From NCBI GenBank assembly GCA_963692915.1, contig OY843584.1, forward strand, positions 1,248,001 to 1,312,000: 64,000 nucleotides of DNA, written 5' to 3'. The notes below the pieces were generated by a model. That model was given only the letters and a program-made list of their open reading frames with translations, did no database searches and was not told the origin of the DNA. This stretch comes from Cenarchaeum sp. GTDB lineage: Archaea > Thermoproteota > Nitrososphaeria > Nitrososphaerales > Nitrosopumilaceae. This document shows, one piece after another, positions 55,655-64,000 of this stretch (its first letter is position 1; every line of letters starts with the position of its first letter). A program made the position numbers and the translations under genes.

Positions 55655-56220
55655 CTGCAGTTACCTCCACGGTAAGAGCTTGACATGGGAAGAAACGTGT
55701 CCTTTATCTCGTCGTATATGCCGATGATATAGTCTGGGTCGACTGACAGGTATCGCAATTCGGCCAATCGAAGAATCCAGGTGCGCCGGTCCTGGCCGCC
55801 GGTGGGCTTTGAGTAGCCCTCGTTGACTATATCGTTGAATCGCGACAGGGACGCGGCCATCTCGATCCAGTTCCCGTCATGGTTGGCGGCGAACCTGCGA
55901 AACTCGTCGATGCGCGGCCAATAGCTGTGATCGGGCGGAGGTGCGGCGAGTGCGTCGTCGATATAGTTAAGATCGCCGCACAGACCCAATGCGCACGGAC
56001 CCTCCTCAAAGAGTGAATACATGTACTCTAGTCCGGGATGGCCAAAGTGCCTCATCGCAAAGTACGCAAGGTGCTGCACCCTTTTGCTTGCCCTGAGGTC
56101 CGGCTCTACGACAGGCCTATTGCCGTCTATGATGCCCTCATCGCAGAGGAGCCTGACGAACGGGGCGAGATCCGGGCTATAGGCGACCTTTGGTCTTTGC
56201 GGCATCATGTCTGCGCCCAT
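55651..56220 (-). CDS. YwgA/Panacea (SocA-like) antitoxin-fold protein
   Basis: KRVQHLAYFA...YSLFEEGP...WIEMAASL resembles QKLxY..GP..WLELAA. Confidence 0.6.
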   Translation of the reverse strand: MGADMMPQRPKVAYSPDLAPFVRLLCDEGIIDGNRPVVEPDLRASKRVQHLAYFAMRHFGHPGLEYMYSLFEEGPCALGLCGDLNYIDDALAAPPPDHSYWPRIDEFRRFAANHDGNWIEMAASLSRFNDIVNEGYSKPTGGQDRRTWILRLAELRYLSVDPDYIIGIYDEIKDTFLPMSSSYRGGNCR

Positions 56221-56315
56221 GGGCGCATGCGAACGCGGTACGCCATATTACTGTTAACTGTGGTATGACTTTAAGCGTAGATTTGGCCGACTCGTGCCTA
56301 GATCGCCTGGCCAGG

Positions 56316-56323
56316 TTTAAATA
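56316..56323 (+). promoter_or_regulatory. TATA box of tfb
   Basis: TTTAAATA ending ~26 nt upstream of ATG 56349; preceded by palindrome CCTGGCCAGG. Confidence 0.6.
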
Positions 56324-56348
56324 CCACATACTTAAGAGGGTCGTCATT

Positions 56349-57344
56349 ATGGTTGCCCAAGGCATACGCGCCAAAGAATCCTGCCCACGTTGCGCAAAGG
56401 GCAAGCTCGTCACGGACAACGAGTCTGGCGAGCTCTTTTGCTCAAAGTGCGGCTATGTGATAACCGAAAAGATTGAGGAGTCCGGTCCGGAGTGGCGCTC
56501 GTTCACGCAGGATGACCACGGTGACAGGGCACGCGCCGGCGCGCCAACGTCACTCACGATGCACGACATGGGCCTTGCCACGATAATAAATCCCGTCAAC
56601 AAGGACGCATCAGGCCGTCCGCTTGCCGCATCGATGAAGTCCACGATCGAGCGCCTCCGCACATGGGACAGCCGTAGCCAGGTTCACGAGCCAGTCGACC
56701 GCAACTTTAGGCAGGCATTCTCGGAGCTCAACCGCCTAAAGGACAAGCTCGCGATATCAGATGCCGTGATCGAAAAGGCAGCATACATTTACAGGAAAGC
56801 ACTGGAGAAGGGACTCGTTCGCGGCAGGTCAATATCCGCACTCATGGCATCTGCGCTGTATGCGGCATGCCGCGACACGGCGACGCCGCGAAACCTAAAG
56901 GATGTGGAACACGCGGCGAACATAAAGCGAAAGGACATTGCGCGCTGCTACCGCCTCCTCGTAAAGGAGCTCGACCTAAAGATGCCCGTGACTGACTCTG
57001 TCCAGTGCGTCTCGCGCATCGCAAGCAAGATCGGCATTGCCGAAAAGACAAAGCGCCACGCGACTAATGTCCTAAAGCAGGCAAAAAAGAACGAGGTCTC
57101 CGCCGGCAAGGATCCGATGGGCCTGGCAGCGGCCGCACTGTACCTTGCGTGCGTAAAGAACAACGAGGACAAGACGCAGCGCGACATTGCCGAGGCGGCA
57201 AACGTGACAGAGGTGACGATACGCAACCGCTACAAGGGCCTAAAGCAGTCGATCGACGAGGCCGAGGGCGTCTCTGGGGACACTGACGCAAAGAAATCCA
57301 CGCCGGCCAAGGCAAAAAAGGACGACAAAGGCAACGACAAGTGA
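56349..57344 (+). CDS. tfb: Transcription initiation factor IIB
   Basis: CPRC...CSKCG zinc ribbon, GPEWRSF, HDMGL.T, GRS, GKDP, VTEVTIRNRY. Confidence 0.97.
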   Translation: MVAQGIRAKESCPRCAKGKLVTDNESGELFCSKCGYVITEKIEESGPEWRSFTQDDHGDRARAGAPTSLTMHDMGLATIINPVNKDASGRPLAASMKSTIERLRTWDSRSQVHEPVDRNFRQAFSELNRLKDKLAISDAVIEKAAYIYRKALEKGLVRGRSISALMASALYAACRDTATPRNLKDVEHAANIKRKDIARCYRLLVKELDLKMPVTDSVQCVSRIASKIGIAEKTKRHATNVLKQAKKNEVSAGKDPMGLAAAALYLACVKNNEDKTQRDIAEAANVTEVTIRNRYKGLKQSIDEAEGVSGDTDAKKSTPAKAKKDDKGNDK

Positions 57345-57399
57345 GGCGTGCCGGCGCATTTTTGGCGTACACGATTTCTGCAATTCTGTGTCTCTATAT

Positions 57400-58842
57400 C
57401 TAGACTGACTTTGGCGGAAAGCCAGACTCCTCGGTCTCGGCGTCCTCCTTCGGCTTTGGCGCATCAGGCTCTGGCGTGACAAAGCCGCCCTCATCGGGGT
57501 CAGGCGGTGGTATCTTTTTTGCGCCAGCAAGGCCCACAGTCGTGATTATGACCGTCGAGAGTATGACAAAAAATGCGACTTGCGGATAGGCCTCGGCGTT
57601 TGGCAGGCCGTACGTCAGGGGCAGCGTGGCGAGGACTGCGGCGGCGAGGCCGCGCGGGATCATGACAGAGGTAACCTTGCGATCAAGCCTTGAAAAGCTG
57701 TTCAAGAGTATGACGCGCGCCAGGATTATGCGCGCAATGTATATCGCCACTGCTGCGGCGATCCCAAAGGCCGCAAGGCGCCAGTCGCCAAAGCTCGCCA
57801 ATAGGCCCACAAAGACGAAAAAGAACGCGCGCACGAGAAACGTCAGCTGGTTGTGCATCGAGTCATCGCGCTCTATGGGAGGCATCTTGAAGCGAAAGAG
57901 GCGCGCAATGCGATCCTTGTTGCCCAGGAGAATTCCAAAGACGAGGGCCGTGAGCGCGCCGGACTCGCCGAGCGTGTTGGCCAGGAAAAAGAGGAAAAAG
58001 AGGACGCCTAGCGTGAGCATGTACCCGTGGCGCGCGTTTGCAAGCTTTGCCGTGATGAACAGCCATGGCAGTCCGACGACGAGGCCCAGTGACAGCCCGA
58101 CTGCAAGATTGTGGGCGACTGACTGGGTCAGGCCCTCTATGGTCAACGAGTTGGCCATTATCGCGCCAAACATGATAAAGGCGATGATGGTTGAGAGTAT
58201 GTCAGTTATTGCCGACTCGAATGACAGCATATTCTTTGCGCTCTCAGAGATGCGCAGGTTGCGCACGAGGCCAAAGACGATTACAGAGCTAGAGCCGCCG
58301 ACTATGGAGCCCAGGAGAATGCTGCTGTACCAGTCCCAGTCAAGCACAAAGTGTGCCAGTACCGTGACGATAAACACCGAGATGACAAATCCAATAACGG
58401 CGAGTAGTATCGCAAAGTGAGCCGTGCGGATCATGTGCTTTAGGTCGAGGTTTAGGCCGCCGTCAAACATGATGATGATGAGCGCAATGGCCGCAAAGTA
58501 TGGCACTATCTGCGTGACAATGTCAGGCTGGATTATGCCAAGGATTGGCCCAAAGATGACGCCGAGCATCATCAGAAAGGCGACATCGGGTATTCCCGTC
58601 TTTTTAAAGAACGTCTCGCCTATAACTCCAAAGAATATCGTGACTGCAGCCGCAAGGAGGACGACGGGTGCCGAGGCGATTCCCGCGTCGCTTCCAGAGA
58701 ACGCGGCAAAGGCCTCCTGCAGCCTAGAGACCGCACCGGCGAGCGGTTCGATTCCCGTCGAGTTGGTCAGCTCGCCGGCCGCCGAGAGTGCCCTCTCGAC
58801 TAGGCCGTCGCCTACGGCTAGGGCCACAAAGGGCACGTTCAT
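57400..58842 (-). CDS. Cation:proton antiporter (CPA1/NhaP-like)
   Basis: IIMFDGG, FESAITD, FFFVFVG, PRGLAAAVLA; multiple TMs. Confidence 0.9.
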   Translation of the reverse strand: MNVPFVALAVGDGLVERALSAAGELTNSTGIEPLAGAVSRLQEAFAAFSGSDAGIASAPVVLLAAAVTIFFGVIGETFFKKTGIPDVAFLMMLGVIFGPILGIIQPDIVTQIVPYFAAIALIIIMFDGGLNLDLKHMIRTAHFAILLAVIGFVISVFIVTVLAHFVLDWDWYSSILLGSIVGGSSSVIVFGLVRNLRISESAKNMLSFESAITDILSTIIAFIMFGAIMANSLTIEGLTQSVAHNLAVGLSLGLVVGLPWLFITAKLANARHGYMLTLGVLFFLFFLANTLGESGALTALVFGILLGNKDRIARLFRFKMPPIERDDSMHNQLTFLVRAFFFVFVGLLASFGDWRLAAFGIAAAVAIYIARIILARVILLNSFSRLDRKVTSVMIPRGLAAAVLATLPLTYGLPNAEAYPQVAFFVILSTVIITTVGLAGAKKIPPPDPDEGGFVTPEPDAPKPKEDAETEESGFPPKSV

Positions 58843-58937
58843 GCGCCACGCGCGCCCCGCGTGCGCTTAAAAGGTGCCCGTGTCAAGAGTTGGAGCGCGA
58901 CGGGTTATAACGGAGAGAGTGTGCACGTCGCGCGGCA

Positions 58938-59492
58938 ATGGGAGCAACTGACCTCCTGCGCGAGGACCACCGCCTAGCCTGGCGCCTTGAGGCCGTTATC
59001 GTGTCATGCTGCGAGCGCCTCGAGGGGGGCCGCGACGTTCCGCTAGATGACATTGAGGCGATCTCGGGTGTCATTGACGGCTTTTTGGACAGCGTGCATC
59101 ACGCGCGCGAGGAGGGGACGTACTTTGCGTGCGTCGGCGCGTACGGGATGGGTGCGGACATTCGCAAGTTTCTCATAGAGCACGAGTTTGCGCGTCGCGT
59201 TGCCGCAAAGGTCGCCCATCACGTCTCGCGCTGGCGGGCCGGCGAGGACAGTCGCGAGCCTGTCACGAGGTTTCTGCGCGCGTATGCGGTATTCCTGCGC
59301 GACCACATGACAAAGGAGGAGGCGTTCTTTGAGGAGGCCGAGGCGGCCCTCTCTGCCGAGGAGGAGGCCGAGATGAAGGAGTATCTAGTGTCTGTGGCCT
59401 CTGACGCAAGGACGGTCCGGCGCGCCGAGGCCGAGATTGCAGCACTCGAGGTGGCCGGATGGAATTGCGCCGTGGGTGGCGAGCCAGAATAG
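58938..59492 (+). CDS. Hemerythrin-domain protein
   Basis: LREDH, HHAREE, EH, HMTKEE. Confidence 0.88.
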   Translation: MGATDLLREDHRLAWRLEAVIVSCCERLEGGRDVPLDDIEAISGVIDGFLDSVHHAREEGTYFACVGAYGMGADIRKFLIEHEFARRVAAKVAHHVSRWRAGEDSREPVTRFLRAYAVFLRDHMTKEEAFFEEAEAALSAEEEAEMKEYLVSVASDARTVRRAEAEIAALEVAGWNCAVGGEPE

Positions 59493-59602
59493 CGATCTCT
59501 TGTGCGGTGCGATCTAGGGTTGGTTACAATCTATGGTAATTCTGGGATGATTGTGCTCGAGATCTAACGTGAGCTTTATTAGAAGGCGCTTGGAGCGACA
59601 GT

Positions 59603-60139
59603 ATGTTGACGATCAGGCGGATTCGGTCAGATCACATAGACTTGCGACTAATCAAGTGTGGTGAAACGGAGGCAAGGCAGGCCGAGATCAATGTCGGTCT
59701 TGATGAATTAACGTCTAGCATTGTCAGATATGGTCTTCTAAATCCCGTCTTGCTAGTGGAACACGGAAAAAACGAAACTTATGAGCTAATAGTTGGCCAA
59801 AGGAGACTTTTGGCGTATCAAAATCTAGCAGAAACGGATCAAAGTTATTCAAAAATTCATGCGACCATATATGAAAACACCATGGAAGAGTGGGAAAAGA
59901 GAGCCATCTCGATCAGCTCAAACATCACGCAAGAGCCATTGAAGGAGATAGACAAGATAAACGCCATCACGGCAGTTTACAGCCACTTTGACAGAAATAT
60001 TCCAGAGATGGCCAGAACAGCCTGACTGCCGCCTGATATGTTGGGGAGGCACGTCAAATGCGTAAGGTTGCCAAGGCGAATTGGTTGGCCAGAGGCGCCA
60101 AAAAGCTCAGTCATTGTGCGTGAGGGTAGCGCGATTTAA
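59603..60139 (+). pseudogene. ParB/Spo0J-like protein with premature stop at 60023-60025, truncated
   Basis: LDELTSSI..GLLNPV...YELIVGQRRL; HTH-like sequence continues in frame past the TGA (MARTA*LPPDMLGRHVKCVRLP). Confidence 0.72.
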
Positions 60140-60223
60140 CGAGTTATTGTACAACATGCCACCTAAACATACTTCCAAGACAACGTCAATAACTCTATAA
60201 GGGTTAAAACGTCGCAGGCTCGC

Positions 60224-60391
60224 GTGAGAGACAAGCTCGGAGACCGTCCCTACGACGTCATCAAGGAGAGCGGCAAGTACACACTGCGGTTTTTCCCGCA
60301 GACGCCCAACGCAAAAAACCCCGACACAGTGCTCTTTAGAGTGACCCTCTCAAAGGACGATCTCAAAAAGCTCTGCAAGCTGTCAGGCTAG
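60224..60391 (+). CDS. Small hypothetical protein, not in ORF track
   Basis: From GTG: MRDKLGDRPYDVIKESGKYTLRFFPQTPNAKNPDTVLFRVTLSKDDLKKLCKLSG; host-like codons. Confidence 0.65.
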   Translation: MRDKLGDRPYDVIKESGKYTLRFFPQTPNAKNPDTVLFRVTLSKDDLKKLCKLSG

Positions 60392-60405
60392 ACGCTGAGT
60401 CTGCC

Positions 60406-61482
60406 ATGCAGGATATCGACTCTATCGAGTGGGAGGGCAGCACCGATGATGATCTCGAGTTTATCAAGATGTTCGGCTCGTTTGCGCGTGGCAAGATGTC
60501 AAGCACGTACAAGCCGGTGTTCCTAAAGTGCCTTCTCGACGTGCGCCATTATGTGTCTGGGCAAGCCAATGACAAGCTTGTAGGCAGTAAGTGGGTTCAT
60601 GTAAAAGGCGACAAGATCATTCTGGATCTAAACTTTATAGCGACACGATTCCTAAAGTATTATTGGGATATGGAGTATAGCTTCAAGTTCAAGCAGTCCA
60701 GTGATCGTCAGGATGCCAACATTCGCAGAATAGTCCAGCGTCTAGGAATAAGAAAAGACAAGAAACCGCCAACGAGGGCTCAGCTCGCAAATGACGAAAA
60801 TGCAACCCTGCGGCAAGAGGTGATACGCAAGAGCATAAAGCCCGAAGTCATGATTCACATAAAAACAAACATGGAAAATCTGTTCCAGACAGAGGGACGC
60901 TCAACGTGCATCACGCTAAACCGCAACATAATAGACTTTTTCAACAGACATTATGGCGTGGTCTCCAACATCATAAACCACAAGATGGTGACCGAGCTCG
61001 AAAAGTACAACAAGATGACTCCGCGCATAGCGACAAAGGTTAGCCATGACACCGTGATGCGCCCGACATTGCCCAAAGGGGACTCGGAGCTCATTCTGTG
61101 GAACCAGAGTGATAACCGCTGCTTTTACTGCAAGAGACCTCGCGAGCAGACCCACTTTGACCATGTGATTCCCTTCAACTATGTCTATTCCAATGACATT
61201 TACAACATTGTCGCCTCTTGCCAAAAATGCAACTGTGCCAAGCATGATAGGCTCCCCGAAGAGGATCTGTTTGGGCTGGTGATAGACCGCAACAGTGACC
61301 TAGAGTCCATAGTCAGAGAGCACTCCCTAGGAACCACCGATATCGTGAGCGAGATGGACTTTGGGAGGGCGCTCTCTGGCATGAGCGAGTACACAGAGGA
61401 CCAGTACAGGGCGCTCTATGACAGCTGTGCGGCAACGTACAGCGGGCGCGAAAAGTTCAGGCCAGACCTGATCGCAGGCTAG
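60406..61482 (+). CDS. HNH endonuclease with large N-terminal domain
   Basis: CFYC...DHVIP...N.VASCQKCN..K; N-terminal STYKPVFL and FLKYYW. Confidence 0.9.
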   Translation: MQDIDSIEWEGSTDDDLEFIKMFGSFARGKMSSTYKPVFLKCLLDVRHYVSGQANDKLVGSKWVHVKGDKIILDLNFIATRFLKYYWDMEYSFKFKQSSDRQDANIRRIVQRLGIRKDKKPPTRAQLANDENATLRQEVIRKSIKPEVMIHIKTNMENLFQTEGRSTCITLNRNIIDFFNRHYGVVSNIINHKMVTELEKYNKMTPRIATKVSHDTVMRPTLPKGDSELILWNQSDNRCFYCKRPREQTHFDHVIPFNYVYSNDIYNIVASCQKCNCAKHDRLPEEDLFGLVIDRNSDLESIVREHSLGTTDIVSEMDFGRALSGMSEYTEDQYRALYDSCAATYSGREKFRPDLIAG

Positions 61483-61638
61483 GCTGCCGGACAGGCGATG
61501 GCCCCCGTTCCCCACACGTCCCATGGCGCGCCTGATCGCAGGCTGTCTCACAGATCGCCTGTTGGGAGCATTTTGGGCGACCGTATTTAAGAAAAGCCAC
61601 GATCCAACTAAATAGCCCCAGGTTTCCGATCCGTCGAG

Positions 61639-62730
61639 TTGGCTGAAAAACATACTTCCAGCGTGAAAACCGCCGAGGGGGGGGGGCAACCCGGCCACCC
61701 GGAAGCCAACGTACATTCCTTTGAGGCCATACGCGGCAAGCAGGGCAAGAGAACATTCTACCTAGCCGTCTGCACAATGAAGGCAGCCGCCAAGATATTC
61801 ACCTTTGTGGACGCAAGCACGCCGGCTGACTTGCGCGCGCAGCGCACACTGCGCAAGAGCCGCATACCACGCATACGCGACTATATCATCGGGAATCCGG
61901 ACGACTATATCTTTTCGTCGATTACGGTCTCGGTCAACGGCAAGATCAAGTTTAGCCCATTCAGCGACTATAGCCCCAACATGGGCCTCGCGTCATTCTC
62001 ACAGGACGCATCTGTCCTCATAAACGACGGCCAGCACAGGGTGGCCGCAATAAAGGACACGCTAGAGCAGATGGCCGACTTTGCGCACGACAAGATATCT
62101 GTCGTGTTCTTTGAGGACATTGGGCTAAAGACTAGCCAGCAGATGTTCTCTGATCTCAACAAGAATGCAGTAAAGCCGACAAAGTCCCTAAACATCCTGT
62201 ATGACCGCAGAAACAAGTTCTCAAAGTTTGTAGTCGAGCTGACCGAGACCGTCGAGGTGTTCAAGGGAAGGACAGAGTTGGAAAAAACGACGATCTCTAA
62301 TCGCTCGATAAAGTTCTTTACGCTCAACGGCGTGTTGGAGGCGACAAAGGCATTCCTCGGGCGCACGACAAAGATAACAGACGAGGATAAAGAGCTGACT
62401 GCCGAGTTTTGGACGCACGTGGCAAAAAACATACCAGAGTGGCGTGGCCTAGTGGAGAAAAAGATCGTCCCTGTGAGCATCCGAAACGAGTATGTCCACG
62501 CAAATGTCAACATGCTCGTGACCCTCGGCATCGTCGGCAGAAAGCTTGTGGAGAACTATCCCACTGCCTGGAAGGAGATGCTCGGCGCACTCAACACGAT
62601 AGACTGGCGCCGCTCAAACCACGACTGGGAGGGCAAGGTGGTCATCAACGGCAAGATGATAAAGCACAAGGAGGGAATCGACAGGGCCGTAGAGGCCATA
62701 ATGGGCCGGTGCGTCACGGAGGGGACCTAG
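61639..62730 (+). CDS. dndB: DNA sulfur modification protein DndB (DGQHR domain)
   Basis: AIRGKQ, RAQRTL..RIP.I..YI, YIFSSIT.S, NDGQHR, QQMFSDLN, S.KFFTL. Confidence 0.92.
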   Translation: MAEKHTSSVKTAEGGGQPGHPEANVHSFEAIRGKQGKRTFYLAVCTMKAAAKIFTFVDASTPADLRAQRTLRKSRIPRIRDYIIGNPDDYIFSSITVSVNGKIKFSPFSDYSPNMGLASFSQDASVLINDGQHRVAAIKDTLEQMADFAHDKISVVFFEDIGLKTSQQMFSDLNKNAVKPTKSLNILYDRRNKFSKFVVELTETVEVFKGRTELEKTTISNRSIKFFTLNGVLEATKAFLGRTTKITDEDKELTAEFWTHVAKNIPEWRGLVEKKIVPVSIRNEYVHANVNMLVTLGIVGRKLVENYPTAWKEMLGALNTIDWRRSNHDWEGKVVINGKMIKHKEGIDRAVEAIMGRCVTEGT

Positions 62731-62731
62731 C

Positions 62732-64000
62732 GTGGCAAAATCGTTCTTTGACTCTAGGACGCTCGATGACCTCTATGCCGAGATTAGAGACGTGTATCTC
62801 TCTGATGAGCGCCCGTGGATACTCGGGTTTAGCGGGGGCAAGGACTCTACATGCATGATACAGATCGTGTGGAATGCGCTCTCTGGGCTTGCGCGCGAAA
62901 AGATCACAAAGCGCATATACGTCATATCGTCTGACACGCTAGTCGAGTCGCCAAAGATTGTGGAGACCGTGACTGGTACGCTGCAGAGCATGGAGGAGGC
63001 CGCAGTGCGCGCAGGGCTGCCCATATCGACAAACCTCGTGAGGCCGGTTCTCGCTGAGACGTTCTGGGTCTGCCTCCTTGGCAAGGGGTATCCGGCGCCA
63101 TCCACGACGTTCAGGTGGTGCACCGACCGCCTAAAGATCAGCAGCGCCAACCGCTTTATCAACGAGCGGGTGTCCGAGCATGGCGAGGTCGTAATGCTCC
63201 TCGGCTCCCGCAGCGACGAGAGCAGCACTAGGGCGCAGGTCCTCAGCCTTCATCGCATCGGCGAGACGCCGCTCTCAAAGCACGATTCGCTCACCGGCGC
63301 GTTCATCTATCCGCCGCTGCGCGACTTTACGACGCAGGACGTGTGGAACTATCTCTTGCAGCATTCGCAAAACCCGTGGGGCGGCAACAACCGCGACCTC
63401 CTTGCCCTCTACAAGGACGCCAATGCGGCCGAGTGCCCCCTCGTCGTCGACACGAACACACAGTCGTGCGGCAACAGCAGGTTTGGGTGCTGGACGTGCA
63501 CGGTCGTAGAGCGCGACAAGTCCATGGAGAACATGATCGACTCGGGCGAGACATGGATGGAGCCGCTCCTCGAGCTGCGCGAGGAGCTAAAGAGAACGCA
63601 AGACCCCGAGGTCAAAAAGGAGGTTCGCGAGCTGAAACACCGCAACGGGAGCATTATATTCTGGAAGGGCCGCGTGGCCATGGGCCACTACAAGCTCGAC
63701 TATTGCAAGGGGTTCCTCGAAAAGCTCCTCGTCGCCGAAAAGAGCGTGCGCGAGAACGGGACAGACGCGCAGATGGAGCTCATCGGGCGCGATGAGATTC
63801 GCGAGATACAGCGCATATGGCGCATGGAGCGCGGTGACTGGAAGAACTCGGCATACGCCATACTCGAGGAGGCCACCGGCGAGAGGATTGGCGGCGAGCA
63901 CGACGATGCCGGAACGCTGGGCGCGACCGAGCAGAGTGAGCTCGAGGCCGCATGCGCCGAGCGGTCAATGCCGCCGCTCCTGCTCTCCAGGCTCATCAAT
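62732..64000 (+). CDS. dndC: DNA phosphorothioation protein DndC (PAPS reductase family), 3'-truncated by window; absent from ORF track
   Basis: Manual translation from GTG: PWILGFSGGKDST, SDTLVESP, FWVCLLGKGYPAP..FRWCTDRLKI, DVWNYLL, NPWG, ECPLVVD..SCGNSRFGCWTCTVV.DKSM. Confidence 0.95.
   Translation, partial: MAKSFFDSRTLDDLYAEIRDVYLSDERPWILGFSGGKDSTCMIQIVWNALSGLAREKITKRIYVISSDTLVESPKIVETVTGTLQSMEEAAVRAGLPISTNLVRPVLAETFWVCLLGKGYPAPSTTFRWCTDRLKISSANRFINERVSEHGEVVMLLGSRSDESSTRAQVLSLHRIGETPLSKHDSLTGAFIYPPLRDFTTQDVWNYLLQHSQNPWGGNNRDLLALYKDANAAECPLVVDTNTQSCGNSRFGCWTCTVVERDKSMENMIDSGETWMEPLLELREELKRTQDPEVKKEVRELKHRNGSIIFWKGRVAMGHYKLDYCKGFLEKLLVAEKSVRENGTDAQMELIGRDEIREIQRIWRMERGDWKNSAYAILEEATGERIGGEHDDAGTLGATEQSELEAACAERSMPPLLLSRLIN

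Follow-up and report, generated by a model that had tools for sequence, protein, structure and literature searches.

A close counterpart of the locus described here comes from Salmonella enterica Cerro 87, where DndI, a single DUF262-DUF1524 protein of about 600 aa with the DUF262 motif DGQQR, forms a defense system with IscS-DndBCDE, the writer of phosphorothioate (PT) modification (PMC11662687; structure 9JFL). There, the DndI ATPase is stimulated by PT through a hydrophobic patch at Y25, the DndI nuclease is toxic without PT, and DndI and DndFGH alike are toxic when the host carries no PT. Archaeal PT-based defense is represented by the DndCDEA-PbeABCD module of haloarchaea (PMC6459918). 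A further group, the PT-dependent type IV restriction endonucleases of SBD-HNH and SBD-SRA-HNH architecture (SBD, sulfur-binding domain; ScoMcrA, SprMcrA and EcoWI; model NF045808), joins an N-terminal winged-helix reader to a C-terminal HNH nuclease and has been characterized biochemically (PMC6224610, PMC7461809). Reader-HNH nucleases have also been noted in dnd neighborhoods and proposed as restriction components (Krishnan et al., NAR 2024, PMC10853773), and thaumarchaeal dnd clusters with DUF262/DUF1524 neighbors have already been published (PMC7848895, PMC6790972). Here we describe an island that begins near the end of a 64,000-nucleotide stretch of archaeal DNA (the window, positions 1248001-1312000 of contig C1 in the 1.64 Mb single-contig genome G000), in which a complete dndBCDEA module is joined by a DndI-like gene and by three paralogous HNH proteins, HNH-358, HNH-343 and HNH-404.

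The host is an ammonia-oxidizing, Nitrosopumilaceae-type archaeon carrying a defense island, and that island is a variation on known defense systems rather than a new kind. Our leading interpretation, to which we give a little less than even weight, is that a DndBCDEA-DndI-type system stands here beside stand-alone, type-IV-like reader-HNH nucleases that are probably directed at PT-DNA.

A complete writing module beside a DndI-like gene

The island extends from about 59600 to about 72400 in window numbering, some 13 kb, and the window end holds its left part; the remainder was read beyond the window, in the next 20 kb of the genome (L002; window coordinate = L002 coordinate + 57000). The list of open reading frames (ORFs) for window 56000-64000 contains a co-oriented run of a ParB fragment, a 55-aa ORF, the 358-aa HNH gene, dndB and dndC, five features whose coordinates match those of the original prediction (Table 1). 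As that prediction also had it, dndC runs off the window: its frame is still open at the window end, and the gene is completed 147 nt farther on as a protein of 471 aa. Past dndC the order is dndD, dndE, dndA, the DndI-like gene, HNH-343 and HNH-404, with dndD, dndE, dndA and the protein bearing GmrSD_N and GmrSD_C located at L002 5732-15385.

These data lead us to conclude that a complete dndBCDEA PT-writing module is present, with unbroken frames. DndB matches PF14072 (E 1e-110), the PADLOC DndB model (E 1e-120) and TIGR03233 (359.3 bits against a cut-off of 328). The 423 aa of DndC, a PAPS-reductase-like sulfurtransferase, that lie in the window already score 474 bits with TIGR03183 (cut-off 290), and the full gene matches PADLOC DndC at E 2.6e-176. 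Loss or breakage of dndD or dndE, against which the original prediction had asked that the downstream sequence be inspected, is not the case: dndD (ABC/SMC-like ATPase, 673 aa; PADLOC DndD, E 3.2e-159), dndE (145 aa; PADLOC, E 2e-32; PF08870, 67.9 bits against a cut-off of 25) and dndA (cysteine desulfurase, 396 aa; PADLOC DndA, E 3.8e-153; Aminotran_5, 252.7 bits) are all intact. The dndB and dndC genes are adjacent, and the dndC/dndD, dndD/dndE and dndE/dndA pairs overlap. Because the spacer before dndB contains an AT-rich TATTTAAG element, 47 nt ahead of the dndB start, dndBCDEA may have its own promoter.

The same prediction held that the HNH gene takes the place of a recognized partner module. 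That part must be abandoned, since a DndI/SspE-type DUF262-DUF1524 gene lies directly after dndA. Its 620-aa product scores 121.6 bits with GmrSD_N (DUF262; cut-off 33.2) and 70 bits with GmrSD_C (the DUF1524 His-Me nuclease domain; cut-off 23; residues 467-603). Among all Protein Data Bank (PDB) sequences, its best match is DndI itself (9JFL; E 6.6e-17, residues 10-256 only), followed by SspE (E 3e-07, residues 18-87); of the PADLOC models, HEC-06, "Orf5" and SspE fit it best. The protein has DGQQR at residues 75-79, E508-H509 and an N547 region in the C-terminal domain, and P-x-Y-Q at residues 20-23, which, judged by motif rather than by alignment, would be equivalent to P23/Y25/Q26 of DndI. 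Thus the locus resembles the Salmonella system in setting a dndBCDE-type writer beside a single protein of this kind. It differs in its archaeal host, in having dndA within the cluster instead of an iscS elsewhere, and in a DndI-like gene that is AT-rich and convergent with dndA and whose PT sensing is proposed only by analogy.

Across the taxonomic family, we mapped all 40 DndC places in 151 genomes with local hidden Markov models; DndC occurs in 31 of these genomes, and all locus counts are lower bounds, several of the 40 loci running to contig ends. DUF262-DUF1524 genes are present in 13 of the 40 dnd loci. All 10 of the other dnd-adjacent homologs that were measured (L007-L057) are far richer in AT than the loci around them, with a gene GC content of 0.28-0.38 in loci of 0.32-0.55, and these effectors look frequently exchanged. 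Within the island, the GC content of dndC, dndD and dndE is host-like (0.60; genome 0.594), and that of the ParB fragment (0.44), HNH-358 (0.50), HNH-343 (0.51) and the DndI-like gene (0.33) is not, which suggests a conserved writer with swapped accessory genes. An AT-rich spacer of 490 nt follows the DndI-like gene.

Other restriction modules were looked for in the same genome. No second PbeC/DndD-type gene was found in G000, where the PbeC model PDLC02756 matches only DndD and one 25-residue P-loop stretch. TIGR03236, TIGR03237 and TIGR03238 (dnd_assoc_1/2/3), which we take to be DndFGH, gave no match in G000 at E <= 0.01, a result to be read with the fact that 14 control genomes were likewise silent; no dnd_assoc-type gene was seen among the island ORFs. 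The window's relatives do have PbeC-like genes, as do haloarchaea, but G000 differs from the haloarchaeal module both in having no second PbeC/DndD and in possessing dndB, which that module is named without (PMC6459918). PbeC-like DndD paralogs adjoin dnd in 15 of the 40 loci (L004:4029-5975, L011:419-2521, L013:14862-17009 and 12 more), and the three that were checked with PADLOC match PbeC at E 1e-74 to 5e-103. To judge from these PbeC-like genes, Pbe-type modules seem common in Nitrosopumilaceae, and not only in haloarchaea.

HNH-358 joins a predicted reader domain to an HNH nuclease

The nuclease half of HNH-358 is readily recognized. In an alignment of 41 family members, all three paralogs included, C239, C242, H253, N267, C275 and K279 are invariant; D252, C272 and N276 are nearly so, and the four cysteines are conserved. 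The profile also matches the Gme HNH structure 4h9d (E 9e-10). All three paralogs, each with two domains, a predicted winged-helix reader and an HNH nuclease, are encoded no farther than 12 kb from a single dnd cluster and align over nearly their full length, HNH-404 being 45% identical to HNH-358 over 349 columns and HNH-343 being 28% identical to HNH-358 and 25% to HNH-404. A search against the whole library returned 187 representatives of the family at E <= 1e-10; the closer homologs of HNH-358 are nearly all unnamed, though two, from Cenarchaeum symbiosum, bear the annotation "HNH endonuclease".

Two other identities for HNH-358 were considered and rejected. An IscB/Cas9-like RNA-guided nuclease is contradicted by NCBIfam matches that cover the HNH domain only and reach 22-23 bits against cut-offs of 175-375, and a homing endonuclease or mobile-element gene by the lack of any integrase or transposase in the island.

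The N-terminal part was examined through AlphaFold models, for which pLDDT was 87.9 for the whole of HNH-358 and 90.9 for the N-terminal domain. For both models, solved SBDs took ranks 1-5 among 48,161 chains, with 117-134 residues aligned, which is nearly the whole SBD; Cdc6/ORC winged-helix domains came next, at 6.2-6.3. On these ranks the predicted fold appears SBD-like, with the Cdc6/ORC rows close behind, and the alignment of 41 members contains, in this part, an invariant Y35 with nearly invariant T34, K36, Y86 and W87. In sequence searches the domain stands alone. It matched no Pfam family at E <= 1, with 71 family members as queries and a Pfam copy that does not contain PF26340 and is therefore silent on SBD membership, and it had no NCBIfam or PADLOC match. 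In the ESM Atlas, unnamed clusters scored 0.91-0.92, as against 0.78 for a cluster with PF26340 in 30% of its members, which we treat as a lead and not as evidence.

NF045808 itself gave no match at E <= 1e-18 in 401 genomes of the phylum; among the 151 genomes of the family, its cut-off was reached in none and its nuclease half alone was matched in 18. Matches to the C-terminal half of NF045808, at E 5e-18 and 6e-13, come from the nuclease half of relatives that share this reader domain. The domain also occurs in other company: of 10 longer proteins that have it at the N terminus, seven carry HNH_2, one a McrB-type AAA_5 and two no assigned partner, and in proteins of about 300 aa the reader domain is joined only by a coil.

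The family is like the SBD-HNH and SBD-SRA-HNH enzymes in domain order, and many of its copies are solitary, as expected of type IV. It differs from them in that no sequence similarity to SBD or NF045808 was found and in having no SRA domain. The proteins described in PMC10853773, with wHTH(SBD), SAD(SRA) and HNH domains, are likewise reader-HNH proteins inside dnd loci without DndFGH and are likewise candidates for an alternative restriction component; they have a recognizable SBD and an SRA, and in most cases the modification genes precede them. HNH-358, in contrast, has a reader of a different sequence family without SRA and is encoded upstream of dndB, behind a 55-aa ORF, with two paralogs downstream. 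In the portions of the literature that we searched, we did not find this reader family, its place 5' of dndB behind the 55-aa ORF, or its triplication, and the supplementary datasets of PMC10853773 may list the family.

Close relatives are linked to dnd, the wider family mostly is not

The original prediction called for the HNH gene and dnd to occur together across related genomes, and this proved correct for the closest relatives and incorrect for most others. Among the 151 genomes, the HNH family is present in 32 and DndC in 31; the two occur together in 20, the HNH family alone in 12 and DndC alone in 11. The family is thus found in 20 of 31 DndC-positive and 12 of 120 DndC-negative genomes, a contrast that is inflated by kinship among the genomes. 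Of the 40 dnd loci, 8 encode a reader-domain protein somewhere in the stretch examined, and 5 encode it directly 5' of dndB and co-oriented with it (G000, G059, G014, G071 and G089, from three genera). Such a position sets this subset apart from bacterial SBD-HNH genes, for which it is rare.

A pattern scan of species-representative genomes, in which a narrow query retrieved close relatives only, yielded 22 loci that under-sample the HNH family; nearly all are labeled Nitrosopumilaceae or Thaumarchaeota. The flanking sequence contains dnd genes in four of the 22 (L058, L061, L063 and L067). The closest relatives of HNH-358, at 67-68% identity (L058/L010 and L057), again adjoin dnd or dnd-associated genes; L057, at 67%, retains the pair of 55-aa ORF and HNH gene together with a homolog of the DndI-like gene, up to the contig end. 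Flanks of the full 10 kb were available for 11 loci, of which two have dnd and nine are solitary; the solitary L060, L062 and L069 sit beside a transposase or another HNH-type ORF. We conclude that the closest relatives of HNH-358 are dnd-linked and that the wider family is mostly solitary.

Two side observations concern these surveys. Proteins of about 290 aa are encoded directly 3' of dndA in L005 (15272-16153), L011 (4982-5842), L013 (11689-12552) and L017 (9284-10180); L024 and L035 contain such proteins too. They combine an unassigned N-terminal domain with an HNH_2 domain that matches only the C-terminal half of NF045808, and they constitute a second kind of dnd-linked reader-HNH protein, absent from the window's island. 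Separately, records from bacterial bins, L057 and L067 (Deltaproteobacteria bacterium STY1_bin_8) and L071 (Hyphomicrobiaceae), hold close homologs of the archaeal island, sharing the pair of 55-aa ORF and HNH gene at 67% identity and the synteny of TPR, HNH-404 and HNH-343 genes; these contigs probably belong to thaumarchaea and were mis-binned.

The left edge of the island

The 55-aa ORF that precedes HNH-358 is a real conserved gene, as judged by its recurrence. Of the 40 dnd loci, 15 contain a homolog, which in 12 lies directly 5' of dndB; besides the window copy, the ORF was noted in L008, L011, L014-L018, L021, L022, L024, L025, L030, L033, L036 and L057. The ORF is separated from dndB by the HNH gene in G000 and L057, at a gap of 13-14 nt from the ORF (13 nt in L057). 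No match to it was found in Pfam, PADLOC or NCBIfam; the ESM Atlas has unnamed 55-aa clusters at 0.81-0.82, and a protein word-index search gave four close unnamed relatives. From its sequence and distribution, it may be an unrecognized dnd-associated gene of ammonia-oxidizing archaea.

The ParB-like gene at the head of the run looks like a pseudogene, as had been proposed: a stop at 60026 cuts the frame. The fragment scores 32.3 bits with ParB_N (cut-off 26.3), and TIGR00180 covers model positions 7-128 of 186. In a tblastn comparison, residues 13-155 of the relative from L006 align across the stop as far as window position 60082, where homology is lost, so that an in-frame remnant persists to about 60082. 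Full-length relatives in other dnd loci have 273-312 aa, and the one that was scanned (L021, 273 aa) has ParB_N and HTH_ParB. A ParB-like gene of about 275 aa recurs in seven other dnd loci. Near dnd we noted such genes at L006:18262-19098, L014:15508-16446, L021:6080-6901, L022:2897-3718, L031:12498-13370 and L039:17144-17485; that of L021 lies directly 3' of dndA.

By family scan, the genes upstream of the run are ordinary (hemerythrin, Na+/H+ exchanger, TFB), and to the right of HNH-404 a TPR protein is followed by housekeeping genes. Contigs from four public runs that cover window 59300-62000 contain co-existing strain variants with many transitions. A minority have a 1-nt deletion at 60032, and alternative sequence continues from 60081 and 60420; the left island edge seems to be polymorphic within the population. 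Otherwise, the contigs of these runs gave strain variation and cross-mapping of the HNH-404 paralog only, and no informative joint.

Table 1. Features of the island, in window coordinates unless L002 is named
Feature	Coordinates	Strand	Basis or remark
Truncated ParB-like gene, N-terminal ParB_N half, 140 aa	59603..60025	+	ParB_N; GC 0.437
ParB-like remnant past the stop codon, same frame	60026..60082	+	tblastn with the 278-aa L006 relative
Conserved 55-aa dnd-associated ORF	60224..60391	+	Ends 14 nt before the HNH gene
HNH-358, whole gene, 358 aa	60406..61482	+	Pfam HNH 34.9 bits, cut-off 21.4, residues 239-282
HNH-358, N-terminal reader-like domain, residues 1 to ~220, winged-helix based, SBD-like fold	60406..61065	+	Predicted structure
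HNH-358, C-terminal HNH (beta-beta-alpha-Me) nuclease domain	61066..61482	+	Motif residues present
AT-rich TATTTAAG element, possible archaeal TATA box	61584..61591	+	Read from sequence; in the 156-nt HNH-dndB spacer
dndB, DGQHR/ParB-like regulator of PT modification, 363 aa	61639..62730	+	PF14072, PADLOC DndB, TIGR03233
dndC, first 423 of 471 codons	62732..64000 (open at window end)	+	TIGR03183
DndI/SspE-type DUF262-DUF1524 gene, 620 aa	L002 10767-12629	-	GmrSD_N and GmrSD_C; convergent, directly after dndA
HNH-343, 343-aa HNH protein	beyond the DndI-like gene	+	
HNH-404, 404-aa HNH protein	beyond HNH-343	-	

Discussion

In the model that we favor, defense would have two layers. By analogy with Salmonella, dndBCDEA would write PT into host DNA, and the DndI-like nuclease would use that PT to tell self and non-self apart: its ParB-like NTPase domain, on sensing PT in host DNA, would hold back the C-terminal nuclease, which would be free to nick unmodified invader DNA. 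HNH-358, HNH-343 and HNH-404 would form the second layer, as modification-dependent nucleases that most probably bind PT where it stands in sequence contexts foreign to the host, and that would cut incoming DNA bearing foreign PT patterns. With three diverged readers coverage would be broader, and the host motif would still be spared. We place these nucleases with type IV, rather than with enzymes that take PT as the mark of self, because 12 of the 32 genomes with the HNH family have no DndC match and nine of the 11 fully flanked loci are solitary. Since dnd occurs in about one-fifth of the sampled genomes of the family, foreign PT patterns are a plausible target. The original prediction of a PT-coupled effector thus stands as a reasonable proposal, in view of the predicted SBD-like fold, the dnd linkage of the closest relatives and the intact dndD, dndE and dndA, and is weakened by the many relatives that are not linked to dnd.

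Several observations weigh against this model. The link of the reader domain to SBD is at the level of fold and is weak: the SBD rows lie within 1 Z unit of the Cdc6/ORC winged helices, and we count them as tied. Foldseek searches of the PDB with the full and N-domain models gave no reader-domain match at E <= 0.001, with Cas9-type HNH rows in the list for the full model and only weak unrelated rows (IpaD, P450s) in that for the N-terminal domain. A reader-domain profile searched against PDB sequences at E <= 10 returned only chance-level rows and no SBD chain, and NF045808 (PT-DNA_restrict, cut-off 180 bits) matched nothing anywhere in G000 at E <= 10. The residues expected of the sulfur cavity also seem to differ. 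These are given in PMC6224610 as H116, R117/K and P165, of which P165 and H116 vary least, and as "HR or HK and YP" in PMC7461809; neither the canonical H-[RK] nor the conserved proline is kept in the reader-family alignments. Instead the family has the pairs Y35-K36 and Y86-W87, which would fall at roughly the linear offsets of H116/R117 and Y164/P165. Further difficulties concern the setting. Self-cleavage is a danger wherever a PT-dependent nuclease is encoded next to a PT writer, and fewer than 3.6% of bacterial SBD-HNH genes lie near dnd (Lutz et al., PMC7461809). Reader-only proteins of 297 and 306 aa, in which no nuclease domain was found, lie directly 5' of dndB in G071 and G089 (loci L005 and L006), and their presence in that slot suggests regulation rather than restriction. 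As for the first layer, the similarity of the DndI-like protein to DndI is confined to about 250 N-terminal residues and its gene is compositionally foreign (GC 0.332 against 0.594 for the genome), so that it may be a recent arrival that is not tuned to the dndBCDEA found here.

The evidence bears differently on other explanations. One, which we consider improbable, is that HNH-358 is a second cognate effector beside the DndI-like gene, restrained by binding host PT and cutting unmodified invaders. This would fit the co-oriented position directly 5' of dndB in five loci of three genera, the pair of 55-aa ORF and HNH gene kept at a 13-14 nt gap in a relative and the predicted SBD-like fold, and Krishnan et al. 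proposed as much for wHTH(SBD)+SAD+HNH proteins encoded in dnd loci across 698 taxa (PMC10853773). However, an enzyme that depends on PT for its restraint should be toxic in the 12 genomes without a DndC match and at the nine solitary loci, as DndI and DndFGH are without host PT (PMC11662687), and the solved SBD-HNH enzymes cut PT-DNA rather than spare it (PMC7461809). The same solitary copies, some of them by transposases or other HNH nucleases, could mean that the family does not read PT at all. Its winged helix would then recognize a modified base or plain sequence, and proximity to dnd would reflect the clustering of defense genes, an explanation that we regard as fairly unlikely. It agrees with the structural tie between SBDs and generic Cdc6/ORC winged helices, with the lack of a sequence link to SBD and with the general richness of sponge-associated thaumarchaea in restriction genes described in PMC7848895. 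It leaves unexplained why the slot 5' of dndB recurs in the same orientation in three genera, why three paralogs lie less than 12 kb from one dnd cluster and why, by a rough tally in genomes with both, some 11 out of about 65 copies of the family are no more than about 12 kb away from dndC, where chance would predict some 1-2% per copy.

The reader-only proteins of G071 and G089 raise yet another explanation, in which the domain would serve the dnd operon as a DNA-binding regulator or accessory, perhaps acting at the dnd promoter or at PT sites to tune modification, with the HNH fusion secondary. That their slot is otherwise occupied by the conserved 55-aa ORF is compatible with such a role. 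Nevertheless, all nuclease motif residues are present in HNH-358, HNH-343 and HNH-404, and fusion to a nuclease or a McrB-type ATPase in eight of the 10 longer proteins is the pattern of restriction enzymes; we think a regulatory or accessory function very unlikely. A more far-reaching reading, which we regard as fairly unlikely, is that the reader domain is a previously unrecognized PT-reading class, extremely diverged from or convergent with the bacterial SBD and using a Y-K/Y-W pocket where the SBD has H-R/K and Y-P, and that the domain forms with the 55-aa protein an archaeal PT-coupled effector module at the head of dndBCDEA, the paralogs reading different PT contexts. If this were true, the three paralogs would distinguish the cell's own PT pattern from those of neighboring dnd-positive strains and of their viruses.

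What is known of PT-based defense comes almost wholly from bacteria and haloarchaea. Ammonia-oxidizing archaea are globally abundant and dnd is common among them, and thaumarchaeal dnd modules mix their effectors, with DndI-like nucleases, PbeC-like ATPases and two kinds of reader-HNH protein. If the reader domain does not bind PT, the locus described here is an ordinary defense island. If it does, it would add a second sequence family to the sulfur-reading domains, useful for PT mapping of the EcoWI-seq kind, and would bear on how PT-dependent nucleases coexist with PT writers.

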